This document shows positions 3,404 through 64,000 of a DNA stretch of 64,000 bases, piece after piece (within the stretch, counting starts at the first letter, position 1; each line of letters opens with the position of its first letter). Source of the stretch: an uncultured Chitinophaga sp. (GTDB taxonomy: Bacteria; Planctomycetota; Phycisphaerae; Phycisphaerales; SM1A02); contig CAYTYU010000001.1 in the NCBI GenBank assembly GCA_964440815.1, positions 5,646 to 69,645 on the forward strand, written 5' to 3'. The notes beneath the pieces are model-generated. The model was not told where the DNA came from and did no database searches. It saw only the letters and a list, made by a program, of their open reading frames with translations. Made by a program: the position numbers and the translations under genes.

Positions 3404-4506
3404 CGCGGGGACAGGGCCGTCGCTGCAGGTACGTCCGGCGCGGTGACCGCGGCACGCGCCCGGGCCGCCCGCTCCTCGCGCCGCGGGACGATGTCCCATG
3501 CGAGGCCGACGAGGGACAAGGCGCGCACCTCGAGGTAGGTGACGTCGAGTTCCCACCACCGGTGCCGGACGGTGCAGCAGGCGGGATCGGCGTGGTGGTT
3601 GTTGTGCCAGCCCTCGCCGCAGGCGGCGATGGCGACCAGCCAGTTGTTTCGGCTGTTCTCGTCGGTGTCGTGGTTTCGGTAGCCGAAGATGTGGGTGAGG
3701 CTGTTCACGCTCCAGGTGATGTGCCACACCAGCACCGTGCGCAGGAACACGCCCCATGCGACGACGCCGGCGGCGAAGTTCGCGGCGCCCGCGGCGTCGG
3801 TCCAGGCGAGCGCGACCGCGAACGACACGGCCGCGAAGAGCACGACCTGCGCGCCGTAGAACCAGAGCGGGCTCCACGGGTGCTTCTCGATCCACATGTA
3901 GAAGGGGTCGCGGAGGACGTCGCGCGCGTAGCGCTCGTAGTTGGCGCGGTGGTGCAGGTCGCGGTTTCGCACCAGGAGCCACCACATGTGCCCCCACAGG
4001 AAGGTCACCATCGGCGTGTGCGGGTCCTCTCGCTCGTCGCTGTGGGCATGGTGCATCCGGTGCGTGGCGATCCACCGCGCGGGCGAGTCCTCCAGGCAGC
4101 ACAGCGCGCCGACCACCAGCAGGTGCTCGAACCAGCGGGGCGTGCTGAAGCTGCGGTGGGCCAGCAGCCGGTGGTAGCCGAGCGTGATGGTCTGCCCGAA
4201 GACGTGCACGCCGGCCAGGCAGAGGACGACGGCGGTCCAGGAGAAGAATGCGGGCACCAGCGTCGCCAGGCACAGCACGTGCACCGCGACGATGGGGACG
4301 AAGTAGCGGACGAGCACCTGCCGCGGCTCGGTGGCCTCGGGGCGCTGCAGGGAAGATCGGAATGTCGTCAACGGTGGTGCCGAGGCGTGGGGAGGGGCGC
4401 TGTCGCCGGGAACGGCGCTCAGATGCGCCCTTTCAAGGACTCTACCTGCTTCACCCCGTGACGTTGCCCCACCGGCCGAGGAATGCGCCGAGATCGATTC
4501 CGTCAA
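3307..4506 (-). CDS. acyl-CoA (delta-9 type) fatty acid desaturase
   Basis: Three histidine boxes (HRLLAH, HRMHHAHSD, HNNHHA) plus the flanking TM helices typical of membrane desaturases. The true start is probably downstream of 4506, because the ORF overlaps the upstream gene by 56 nt. The low-complexity C-terminal tail overlaps the convergent thioredoxin-like gene by 97 nt. Confidence 0.85.
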   Translation of the reverse strand: MTESISAHSSAGGATSRGEAGRVLERAHLSAVPGDSAPPHASAPPLTTFRSSLQRPEATEPRQVLVRYFVPIVAVHVLCLATLVPAFFSWTAVVLCLAGVHVFGQTITLGYHRLLAHRSFSTPRWFEHLLVVGALCCLEDSPARWIATHRMHHAHSDEREDPHTPMVTFLWGHMWWLLVRNRDLHHRANYERYARDVLRDPFYMWIEKHPWSPLWFYGAQVVLFAAVSFAVALAWTDAAGAANFAAGVVAWGVFLRTVLVWHITWSVNSLTHIFGYRNHDTDENSRNNWLVAIAACGEGWHNNHHADPACCTVRHRWWELDVTYLEVRALSLVGLAWDIVPRREERAARARAAVTAPDVPAATALSPRQPPGRPSSHARSSAPERCPASVATTLPSRSA

Positions 4507-7940: not shown

Positions 7941-8665
7941 GATCCGGAGGCGGAATGCGACTCGCGGACGCCTGCTGACGCAGGCAACGCGCGCACGGCG
8001 GCACGCACGGCGTCCAGTTCCTCGGTGGTGCCGTGGACGAAGAGCATGCCCGACTCGCGGTGCAGGCGCATGCGGAACTCCGGCGACCGCATGCCGGGCG
8101 CGAGTCCCGTGTCGATGGCGCGGATGACCGCGTCCTGGCTGGCCTCGGCCGCGGCGCGGTCGGTGGCGTCCGCCGGGACCGCAGGCAGCCGGAACAGTGC
8201 CACCGGCGACTCGACTTCGTGCGCAGTGCCGGGCTCGGCCGGCCTCACGTGCGCCTTGATCTGCATCGACTCGGAGCGTCCCCCGGCAAGCAGGACGTGG
8301 ACGGGCTTCACGAGCTCGACGCCGGGCTTGGTGCCGGGGTCGAGGGTGACGTCGACGGTGAAGGACGCGCCGGGCGCGATCGGGCCCTTCGGCGGATCGG
8401 AGACCTTGGTGCAGCCGCAGCCGGCCTTGATGGCCTCGACGGTGATCGGGGCGTCGCTTGCGTTGGTGATGGTGAGCGTGCCCTTGCCGGGCGTGCCGAT
8501 CACCAGCTCACCGAGCTCGAGCGTGGCGGGCGAGAACTTGAGGACCGGCGCGGTGGCCACCTGGCCGGCCTGTGCGCTCGGTGCGGCGGCGAGGGGCGCA
8601 GGCGCGGCCGCGAGCAGGGCGGGGAGGACGGCGATCGGCAGGGCGGTGGTCCGGATCATTTGCAT
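7937..8665 (-). CDS. DUF1573 domain-containing secreted protein
   Basis: Real start MQMIRTTALPIAVLPALLAAAPA (ATG 8665) within track ORF 7937..9925. Signal peptide; DUF1573 hallmark LTITNASDAPITVEAIKAGCGCTKV. The C-terminal ~100 aa are of unknown type. Confidence 0.7.
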   Translation of the reverse strand: MQMIRTTALPIAVLPALLAAAPAPLAAAPSAQAGQVATAPVLKFSPATLELGELVIGTPGKGTLTITNASDAPITVEAIKAGCGCTKVSDPPKGPIAPGASFTVDVTLDPGTKPGVELVKPVHVLLAGGRSESMQIKAHVRPAEPGTAHEVESPVALFRLPAVPADATDRAAAEASQDAVIRAIDTGLAPGMRSPEFRMRLHRESGMLFVHGTTEELDAVRAAVRALPASAGVRESHSASGS

Positions 8666-22013: not shown

Positions 22014-22205
22014 GGTCCGGGTCGTTTCTCACGGTCTGCACCCTGGATCCCTCCGCTATCGGTCGTCGTCGGCCTGCGCGGGCGGGTTCCTGCTCCGCCC
22101 GCGCGGATTCCGCTTGGAATGTCCGGGATCGGGGGTAGGGTCGGTCATCGGGCCGCGGTCCCGGCCATCCGGCCGGGCGCGATCCCGGACAAGAGGGAAG
22201 GGACC

Positions 22206-61386: not shown

Positions 61387-61494
61387 GGGCGGCGAGGATA
61401 GCCGCGGCGGCGGGGCGCGGCGCGGTGCGCCCTACAATGGTTCCCCTTCGGCGCGTCCGGCGCCGGCACCCACGAACCACTTCGAGGATCCGCG

Positions 61495-63738
61495 ATGTCC
61501 CAGGCCCCCACCATCATCTGGACGCACACCGACGAGGCCCCCGCGCTCGCGAGCTGCTCGCTGCTGCCGATCATCCGGTCGTTCGCCGGGCCGGCGGGGA
61601 TCCGCGTCGAGACGCGCGACCTCTCGCTGTCGGGCCGCATCCTGGCGGCGTTCCCCGAGTGCCTGAAGCCGGAGCAGCGCATTCCCGACGCGCTCGCCGA
61701 GCTCGGCCGCATGTGCCTGACGCCCGAGGCGAACATCATCAAGCTGCCGAACATCAGCGCGTCCGTGCCGCAGCTGAAGGCGGCGATCGCCGAGCTCCAG
61801 AAGCAGGGATTCGCGGTGCCGGGCTACGCCGACGAGCCGAGGACCGACGCCGAGCGCGAATCCAAGTCGCGCTACGACAAGGTCAAGGGCAGCGCCGTGA
61901 ACCCGGTGATCCGCGAGGGCAACTCCGACCGCCGTGCGCCCAAGGCGGTCAAGGACTACGCCCGCGCCAACCCGCACAAGATGGGTGCGTGGTCGCCGGA
62001 GGCGAAGTCCCGCGTGGCCTCGATGGACGCCGGCGACTTCTTCGGCAACGAGCGTTCGGTCACGGTGGCGGCTGACACGACGGCGCGGATTGAGTTCGTG
62101 CCCGCCGCCGGCGGCGCCGCGACGGTGCTGAAGGACGGCCTCAAGCTCGGCGCCGGCGACGTGGTCGACGGCACGTTCATGTCCCGCAAGGCGCTGGTCG
62201 AGTTCCTGGAGCGCACGGTGGCCGACGCGCGTGCGTCGGGCCTCCTGTGGTCGGTGCACCTGAAGGCCACGATGATGAAGGTCTCCGACCCGATCATCTT
62301 CGGCCACGCGGTGCGCGCCTTCTTCAAGCCGGTCTTCGAGCGCCACGGGGCCGCCCTCGCGCGCGCAGGGGTCGACCCGAACAACGGGTTCGGCGACGTC
62401 GTCGCGAAGGTCGCCGCGCTGCCCGCGGCGGAGCGTGCGGCCATCGAGGCAGACGTCGCGGCCGTGCACGCCGCCGGCCCGGCGATCGCCATGGTCGACT
62501 CCGACCGCGGCATCACCAACCTCCACGTCCCGAGCGACGTGATCATCGACGCCTCGATGCCCGCGATGCTCCGCGAGGGCGGCAAGATGTGGAACGCGCA
62601 GGGCAAGACCCAGGAGACGCTCGCGGTCATCCCCGACCGCTGCTACGCCGGCGTCTACCAGGCGGTGGTCGACTTCTGCCGCACGAACGGCGCCTTCGAC
62701 CCGCGCACCATGGGCAGCGTCCCGAACGTCGGGCTGATGGCGCAGGCCGCCGAGGAATACGGCAGCCACGACAAGACCTTCGAGATGAAGGCCGCCGGCA
62801 CCGTGCGCGTGGTGGATGCCGCGGGCAGCGTGCTGATGGAGCACCGCGTGGAGGCGGGCGACATCTGGCGCGCCTGCCGCACGCGCGACGCCGCGATCCG
62901 CGACTGGGTGAAGCTCGCGGTGGCGCGCGCCCGCGCGACCGGCACGCCGGCCGTCTTCTGGCTCGACGAGAAGCGTCCGCACGACGCGCAGGTGCTGGCC
63001 AAGGTGCGGCCCGCGCTCGCCGGGATGGACACCGCCGGCCTGGAAATCAAGGTGATGGCCCCCGCCGACGCCTGCCGCTGGTCGCTCGAGCGCATGAAGC
63101 AGGGCAAGGACACGATCTCGGTCACCGGCAACGTGCTGCGCGACTACCTGACCGACCTGTTCCCGATCCTGGAGCTCGGCACCAGCGCCAAGATGCTCTC
63201 GATCGTGCCCCTCATGAACGGCGGCGGCCTGTTCGAGACGGGCGCCGGTGGATCGGCGCCGAAGCACGTGCAGCAGTTCAACGCCGAGAACAGCCTGCGC
63301 TGGGACTCGCTCGGCGAGTTCATGGCGCTCGCCGCGAGCCTGGAGCACCTGGCCGCGCGCACCGGCAACGCGAAGGCGGCGGTGCTGGCCGAGACGCTCG
63401 ACGAGGCGACCGGCGAGTACCTGCGCAACAACCGCGGGCCCGCGCGCAAGGTCGGCGACCTCGACAACCGCGGCAGCCACTTCTACCTCGCGCTCTACTG
63501 GGCGCAGGCGCTCGCACGCCAGGCGAAGGATCGCGCGCTTGCCGCGCACTTCGCGCCGGTCGCGGCGGAACTGTCGGCCAACGAATCGACGATCGTGTCC
63601 GAGCTCAACGGGGCGCAGGGCCGGCCGGTCGATGTCGGGGGGTACTACCGACCGGACCCGAAGCGCGCCTCCGAGGCGATGCGCCCGAGCGCGACGCTCA
63701 ACGCGATCGTCGGGCAGGGCGCGGCCGTTCCGGCGTGA
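61495..63738 (+). CDS. icd: NADP-dependent isocitrate dehydrogenase, monomeric type
   Basis: 747 aa. The N-terminus [20 protein letters not shown] and the segments [12 protein letters not shown] and [12 protein letters not shown] are typical of the ~740-aa monomeric IDH family. Confidence 0.9.
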
Positions 63739-63816
63739 GCCGCGTGACCCGCAGCCGGGCGCGTGCGCCGTCGAAGCGGCGCGGGCGCGCGGCGCGACGG
63801 CCCGAAAAACGAAGCA

Positions 63817-63836
63817 GGCTCCGATTTCTCGGAGCC
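63817..63836. terminator. perfect 8-bp hairpin ggctccga-tttc-tcggagcc; read on the minus strand it is followed by a T-rich tract (TGCTTCGTTTTTC)
   Basis: Read directly, 79 nt downstream of the icd stop. The T run (aaaaacgaagca on plus, 63805..63816) lies on the left side, so it is a canonical intrinsic terminator only for a minus-strand transcript. It could still act as the hairpin terminator for icd. Confidence 0.5.
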
Positions 63837-63850
63837 ACACTTCAGGTGCC

Positions 63851-64000
63851 TGTCGTTCGGAAGGCTCGGTTCCCGTCGAGCCCGCCGTCAGGCGGTCGGG
63901 GGTGCTGGGTTTCCCGTCCAGCGTCCCCGAGTTGTCTGCCCAGCGACCGGTTTCCCGTCGGTCGTCAGGCTGTCAGTTCCGTCGGCGGGTTCCCGTCCGC
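63851..64000. repeat. array of at least four hairpins (39-41 nt spacing) with variable stems and conserved loop GTT(T)CCCGT; candidate structured ncRNA, truncated by the window end
   Basis: H1 63863..63882 ggctcg-gttcccgt-cgagcc. H2 63904..63922 gctgg-gtttcccgt-ccagc. H3 63944..63964 cgaccg-gtttcccgt-cggtcg. H4 63985..64000 gcgg-gttcccgt-ccgc. The stems differ but stay complementary. There is an extra partial motif, cagttccgtcgg, at 63975..63986. Confidence 0.75.

Follow-up and report, generated by a model that had tools for sequence, protein, structure and literature searches.

An intergenic region at the right-hand end of the window (the whole stretch of DNA analysed, 64,000 nucleotides) holds a genuine structured RNA gene, conserved and hitherto unannotated, whose strand is most likely minus. 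The stems of its hairpins covary around a fixed loop, an intrinsic terminator is encoded on the minus strand at one end, and a two-block motif of fixed spacing marks the other. The reading that we prefer, and to which we give about an even chance, is that of a stand-alone minus-strand RNA of ~215-265 nt that titrates an RNA-binding protein, with CsrA as the prime candidate.

The hairpin array

The array lies downstream of the stop codon of icd (monomeric isocitrate dehydrogenase; 61495-63738, plus strand). The four hairpins described in the initial annotation, with unlike but complementary stems and one common loop, were reproduced in coordinates and in spacing (Table 1). The perfect stems beside the loops are, from H1 to H4, ggctcg/cgagcc, gctgg/ccagc, cgaccg/cggtcg and ggcgg/ccgc, and the loops follow one another at start-to-start distances of 40, 41 and 39 nt. 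The H4 stem is truncated by the window end; its missing c is the next base in the public contigs L004 and L001. What had been taken for a fifth partial copy, cagttccgtcgg, is present at 63974-63985, where in the relatives it forms the outer arm of an extended H4 helix (GUUCUG/CAGAAC; alignment pairs 72-77 with 101-106) and is no separate unit.

Table 1. Coordinates of the array, its terminator and a neighbouring motif (window positions unless a contig is named)
Feature	Position	Strand	Description
U5 tail	63805..63809	minus (A5 on plus)	predicted 3' end of the RNA gene; left-hand conservation limit
Terminator helix	63811..63843	minus	GAAGUG-U-GGCUCCGA-[GAAA]-UCGGAGCC-UGCUUC
H1	63858..63887	minus	nearest the terminator; core stem 63863-63868 with 63877-63882; loop ACGGGAAC
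H1 loop	63869-63876	plus reading	GTTCCCGT
H2	63897..63929	minus	extended helix of 12 pairs; loop 63909-63917, ACGGGAAAC
H2 loop	63909-63917	plus reading	GTTTCCCGT
H3	63944..63964	minus	core cgaccg/cggtcg; loop 63950-63958, ACGGGAAAC
H3 loop	63950-63958	plus reading	GTTTCCCGT
H4	63974..64000	minus	cut at window end; outer arm 63974-63981, inner stem 63984-63988
H4 loop	63989-63996	minus	ACGGGAAC; partners of both arms past 64000
H4 loop	63989-63996	plus reading	GTTCCCGT
GGGTA(C/G)CCTC-like motif	L087 3828-3837; L234 ~4265-4275; L260 1186-1195; L001 12690-12700		upstream of the ABC ATPase start codon

A search of the 64 kb with the loop motif gave 7 matches against 3.0 expected, 3 of them in the array. 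By itself this is not decisive; the decisive evidence is the recurrence of the element at ~12 independent loci with compensatory changes in its stems, described below. The likeness that had been drawn to a hairpin upstream of a PEP-CTERM gene did not hold up. That structure, a perfect 10-bp GC stem with the loop GUUCCUGCU at 22081-22109, ~100 nt upstream of the gene (start 22207), is not a member of the family: it has neither terminator nor array, no GGA in the mRNA sense, and no U-tract on either strand.

Relatives and genomic context

The array being cut by the window edge, the sequence beyond position 64000 was taken from public contigs, and this extension yields the missing H4 base, the far-end block and a neighbouring ABC ATPase gene. 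There are 18 public contigs with a gene for the icd protein. L004 is identical with the window over the last 2,000 bases, and L001 with L004 across the whole intergenic region (window coordinates equal L001/L004 coordinates plus 51,494). The region between icd and the ABC gene measures 473 nt. That gene, on the plus strand, encodes a single-domain ABC ATPase which meets no curated family cut-off and whose relatives one source calls 'MlaF-type'. On the plus strand, H4 is followed on its 3' side by GUCCCCGUUGCC and then by GAACGC-N15-CCCATCAC (window-equivalent 64028-64062).

The stretch from the RNA gene to the ABC gene has two further features. One is a perfect palindrome, TGGATTAT-N5-ATAATCCA (L001/L004 12631-12651; window-equivalent 64125-64145), which reads TATAAT on the minus strand and CATAAT on the plus strand, with TGTAAT or TATAAA at this place in close relatives; an operator is one possible function, two divergent -10 elements another. 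The other, a conserved GGGTA(C/G)CCTC-like motif unlike a Shine-Dalgarno sequence, precedes the start codon of the ABC ATPase gene by 4-10 nt and occurs, as AGTACCCTTC, in L260 too, which has no array.

Relatives were retrieved by pattern scans of genome and metagenome collections, a hairpin filter and look-ups of ABC ATPase homologues. Since the pattern scans returned mostly unrelated matches, from which true relatives emerged only by hairpin filtering, the range of the family is under-sampled. Among the matches listed there are at least ~17 distinct units at ~12 metagenomic or MAG loci, all from Planctomycetota and mostly from Phycisphaerae by their source names. Two sets of ~41-42 nt tandem repeats merely containing TTCCCGT, in a Myxococcota MAG (L021, 5800-6108) and in a soil metagenome (L170, minus strand, ~8130-8320), were rejected as different families; the unrelated scan matches included protein-coding repeats and other tandem repeats, such as those in L021, L153, L170 and L200.

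Loci carry one to three copies of the unit in tandem. Units are found in L087, L175, L257 and L258, in L178, in L227, L247 and L248, and in L255 and L256; the units of L250 and L251 are more diverged. Whole units are duplicated in tandem, with a period of ~420-450 nt, in L234 (two units; 3446-4214), L249 (two units; 1736-2479) and L188 (1-1105; period 451 nt). The upstream tandem units also have in common ~60 nt of additional conserved flank with an AAATC-N3-GATTT palindrome.

To the right of the array, and divergent from it, every locus has the ABC ATPase gene in one constant orientation; the left neighbour varies: icd, an epimerase gene, an acetyltransferase gene or others. The placement downstream of icd, by which the array was originally described, is therefore incidental, and for the same reason the reading as an icd 3' UTR element was rejected. 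In L087 (3392-3444) and L257/L258 (~1048-1100), an epimerase gene follows the RNA terminator on the same (minus) strand at a distance of only ~50 nt, and terminator read-through could there couple the RNA and the epimerase gene. ABC homologues of 70% identity or less (L252, L254, L259, L260) are found without an array. By one of these, in L252 (2450-2503), GAACGC-N14-CCCATCAC ends 1 nt before the ATG, with a spacing of 16 instead of 17; an RNA gene since lost could have left it behind, or the block could also have an ABC-linked role.

Covarying stems and a fixed loop

The initial annotation had read the unlike stems and common loop as a sign of selection at the RNA level, and the relatives bear this out: conservation and covariation are both present at ~12 loci, across which the stems covary and the loop stays constant. 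Admission to the covariation set required 4 or more pairs beside the loop, a caveat on the figures that follow, though 50 of 54 distinct motif instances qualify. In the 35 hairpins with 9-nt loops, double changes are seen at all six stem pairs, and 92.4% of cells are paired, compared with 57.6% in shuffles and 17-46% in slid registers. The stems of H1 orthologues vary among lineages (GGCUCG, GCUCG, GAACUCG), as do those of H2 orthologues (CUCCGA, UCCUGA, CUCUGA, CUUUGA), each with a matching partner.

The loops of the 50 hairpins read, on the minus strand, ACGGGAAAC in 31 and ACGGGAAC in 11; ACGGGGAC, ACGGGAAAU and GCGGGAAC occur twice each, AUGGGAAAC and ACCGGAAAC once each. Their consensus is ACGGGAA(A)C. 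GGA is kept in all seven variants, and no change is seen at alignment loop columns G11, G12 and A14. Conservation sets in abruptly at CCNAAAAA and ends soon past CCATCAY.

That the array is not a protein repeat had been argued from stops in all three minus frames and from a period that is not a multiple of 3; the stops were found where they had been described, and the argument stands. Loops of either 8 or 9 nt, which shift the frame, also rule out a protein repeat. Long plus-strand ORFs over the array are high-GC artefacts, and a short ORF from the AUG in RUGAUGG was rejected, its end points differing among units (8-16 or more codons). Public gene calls do cross the element on the minus strand, in L003/L004/L005 (12471-12611; 46 residues) and in L249 (1855-2322; 155 residues). 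As these have no Pfam match and their frame is not conserved, they are probably spurious. A likeness of the plus strand to a tRNA T-arm (GGTTC...TCC) was also set aside, for want of the bases expected at T-loop positions 57 and 58.

Terminator and strand

The perfect 8-bp hairpin noticed at 63817-63836 is present, with a T-rich tail on the minus strand only, as had been stated. It is the inner stem of a longer terminator helix, in which a single bulged U separates it from an outer stem of 6 pairs. Across units the minus-strand form is GGAGUG-U-GGCCUCGA-[GNRA]-UCGAGGCC-UACUCC, one base, then U5-6. The loops are mostly GNRA-type (GAAA, GAGA, GGAA), and the U-run, 5-6 nt in 13 of 13 aligned units, starts 1 nt past the helix base and coincides with the point where conservation breaks off. 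It is mainly this hairpin that decides between the strands. The substitutions in its helix are strand-specific: with 14 pairs scored, paired cells make up 98.9% on the minus strand against 89.0% on the plus strand, and the 18 cells that differ, at 4 different pairs, are without exception G-U on minus and A-C on plus, none favouring plus. In all 16 units whose hairpin is complete, the terminator folds with an energy 3-9 kcal/mol lower on minus than on plus. Distinct terminator-like sites number two, this one among them, in the 20 kb of the window that were scanned. No minus-strand coding gene that would need such a terminator lies to the right of the array, and a transcript ending here would therefore begin within the intergenic region and cover the array.

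The array stems give no strand signal, their embedded wobbles being plus-only in 7 cases and minus-only in 8, and the folding energy of the array is about equal on the two strands. Of 14 whole units, 10 have the lower energy on minus, which is not decisive as a test of strand. The plus-only G-U pairs that extend H2 and H3 in the window are real. The argument for the plus strand that the initial annotation drew from them, however, has no generality in the face of the 7 versus 8 wobbles and the whole-unit energies. We put the minus-strand reading of the element at roughly three chances in four.

A promoter-like block at the far end

On the minus strand all 17 of 17 units have TGATGG-N17-CGTT, with a spacer of exactly 17 nt and variable sequence, and an A/T block 9-11 nt upstream. 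The window counterpart lies just beyond the edge, at 64028-64062. Upstream tandem units, which no ABC gene follows, retain the far-end block as well, and it is therefore assigned to the RNA unit and not to the ABC gene. Two short conserved blocks at fixed spacing, with a free spacer between them, have the form of a promoter, and the motif may be called promoter-like on that ground. Its CGT, if a -10 element, would recall those of ECF sigma factors. A canonical sigma-70 promoter was found on neither strand of the element region, and, inspected by eye, the flanks fitted neither sigma-54 nor sigma-28. We infer that transcription would start from this block and that an ECF-like sigma factor may recognize it. 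The initial annotation had a minus-strand RNA entering from beyond 64000 and ended by the hairpin at 63817-63836; the end stands, and the RNA would not come from far beyond the edge, the promoter-like block lying only ~30-60 nt past it.

A putative sponge RNA and its rivals

On the preferred reading, the array would constitute the 3' four-fifths of a stand-alone minus-strand non-coding RNA gene. Its 5' part would be made up of the A/T-rich block, TGATGG-N17-CGTT and a short stretch with ACGGGGAC. Four hairpins (five in some lineages) would follow as long imperfect helices, each capped by the 8-9 nt ACGGGAA(A)C, and the strong intrinsic terminator, 63843-63811, would close the RNA, with U5 at 63809-63805. 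Each unit would thus be a complete gene for an RNA of ~215-265 nt. The exposed GGA loops would present equivalent binding sites to an RNA-binding protein and titrate it away from mRNAs, at a dose set by copy number and promoter activity. Protein partner and sponge action are what we infer from this design, and CsrA is the predicted prime candidate. CsrA binds GGA in hairpin loops and is widespread in Planctomycetota (PMC13443453). RNAs that antagonize it are known from Gammaproteobacteria only, and in other phyla, Planctomycetota included, its control is thought to be exerted via FliW (PMC4682653). A tblastn search of the 64 kb window and of the relatives' loci found no csrA. Units have 8-12 GGA on the minus strand and 1-3 on the plus strand, and on minus there is a GGA in each of the 4-5 loops per unit; the enrichment over mononucleotide shuffles is ~1-2 sd. 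The minimum-free-energy fold of the second L234 unit has five hairpins, each displaying the loop, plus the terminator.

An RNA of the same anatomy could act instead by base pairing, with its identical CGGGAAA loops as redundant seeds for UUUCCCG-like sites in mRNAs. Invariant single-stranded loops on variable stems would suit seeds equally, and GGUUCCCC lies at the likely 5' end of icd mRNA, at 61439. We nevertheless consider this unlikely: G/A-rich seeds would miss Shine-Dalgarno regions (icd here uses GAGGA), matches to the complementary motif outside the array are, in the 64 kb, all 1-mismatch and of about chance number, the loop variants retain GGA and not the full 7-mer, and 4-5 identical seeds together with tandem gene copies fit titration better. 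Upstream of icd itself (61430-61450), a -10-like TACAAT is followed directly by GGTTCCCCTTC, which is partly complementary to the RNA loops; the complementarity is probably a coincidence.

Were the plus strand the transcribed one, the RNA could be a leader of the ABC ATPase mRNA, acting in cis, or, as in the second hypothesis of the initial annotation, a small RNA with C-rich UUCCCG loops directed at G-rich sites in trans. The constant orientation relative to the ABC gene at all loci accords with this. On either side of the loop core stand G..U on plus (A..C on minus); the only variants are A-U and G-C, as though a closing pair were being maintained on the plus strand. The last L234 hairpin has plus-only G-U pairs, as do H2 and H3 of the window and also the far-end hairpin of the window lineage, which is followed on plus by U5-6; such a hairpin and U-run are found in the L001, L006, L178 and L255 lineages. 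The plus strand also gives the L001 fragment the better fold (z -6.3, as compared with -2.9 on minus). This advantage vanishes across units, however, and most lineages have AAGAAAAUUC or GAAAUUUC in place of the plus U-run. Read on plus, the left hairpin has A-C mismatches and is preceded by a homopolymer run, where the minus strand has a textbook terminator. Nothing is conserved upstream of it, and in L087, L257 and L258 only ~50 GC-rich nt are left before the start codon of the divergent gene. The far-end block, finally, is kept by upstream tandem units that no ABC gene follows. Transcription of the plus strand thus seems to us quite improbable. Less probable still is an array that works as DNA on the divergent control region, through phased protein sites (~41 bp, or about four helical turns, apart) or through extrusion of hairpins from single-stranded DNA. 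The spacing of 39-44 nt would suit it, as would array stems without preference for G-U over A-C, as if only Watson-Crick pairs counted, and the A/T-rich, partly palindromic GAAATTTC-type sequences that adjoin the array along with TGGATTAT-N5-ATAATCCA. Yet double-stranded sites require no inverted repeats and the stems covary strongly, the terminator shows strand-specific RNA wobbles and a U-tract, and the spacing of neighbouring units differs by 5 nt.

Comparison with known RNAs

The gene resembles the Csr/Rsm sponges of Gammaproteobacteria (CsrB, CsrC, RsmX, RsmY, RsmZ) in design, by analogy and not by homology. Like them it appears as a stand-alone RNA of a few hundred nt with several GGA-loop hairpins, a Rho-independent terminator (here a 14-pair helix and U5-6 on minus) and a variable gene copy number that includes tandem paralogues, and by analogy the design would imply titration of a dimeric GGA-binding protein. 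Homology with them is seen neither in sequence nor in structure: no Rfam family comes near threshold on either strand, and covariance models of the five RNAs find no match up to E 10 or, in a further search, up to E 0.1. The loop, ACGGGAA(A)C, has only the GGA core in common with their A(N)GGA / CAGGA(U/A/C)G context, and the hairpins here are long (12-16 pairs) and regularly spaced. In place of a GacA/UvrY box there is TGATGG-N17-CGTT; the best match to the palindrome TGTAAG-N6-CTTACA in any unit has 4-6 mismatches in 12. The host, too, differs, being a member of the Planctomycetota. Of the three hypotheses in the initial annotation, the comparative data favour a minus-strand RNA of CsrB/RsmZ type, as to design and not as to membership of the Csr/Rsm family.

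RsaE/RoxS, 6C RNA, sX13 and the CcsR 'cuckoo' RNAs also repeat one short motif in several loops on variable stems, and CcsR1-4 are tandem gene copies, as are the whole units at some loci here. In RsaE, 6C, sX13 and CcsR, however, it is the transcribed strand that carries the C-rich motif, whose partners are G-rich ribosome-binding regions; the C-rich version is here on the plus strand, which terminator and promoter-like block disfavour. With REP/BIME elements the array has in common that it is a GC-rich intergenic cluster of hairpins. Those elements conserve the stem sequence and are dispersed in many copies. The description of the array as their opposite is upheld by its varying stems, fixed loop and single, constant genomic context, in which it has its own terminator and promoter-like block; within the 64 kb window there is no other copy of it. 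The uup RNA motif (PMC5737381) is a further parallel, with repeated similar hairpins beside a gene for a soluble ABC-type ATPase. That motif, found in Bacillota and Gammaproteobacteria, belongs to the 5' UTR and so to the strand of the gene itself, in contrast to the array, for which the terminator indicates the strand opposite to the ABC gene; the Rfam search gave no uup match.

Implications

It is a tentative and at present rather doubtful proposition that this is the first RNA antagonist of CsrA, or of another global RNA-binding protein, outside Proteobacteria, with an ACGGGAA(A)C loop code, an ECF-like non-sigma-70 promoter and dosage by tandem duplication. The RNA gene has a fixed partner in an orphan ABC ATPase gene. 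Whether RNA antagonists exist in other CsrA-bearing phyla is an open question (PMC4682653), and for tests of CsrA binding this element from an uncultured clade is a concrete candidate, conserved and easy to synthesise. If the sponge reading is true, a multi-hairpin sponge would exist in a phylum where none is known; even with a partner other than CsrA, the element would represent a new family of structured RNA with very clear covariation and a clean gene anatomy.
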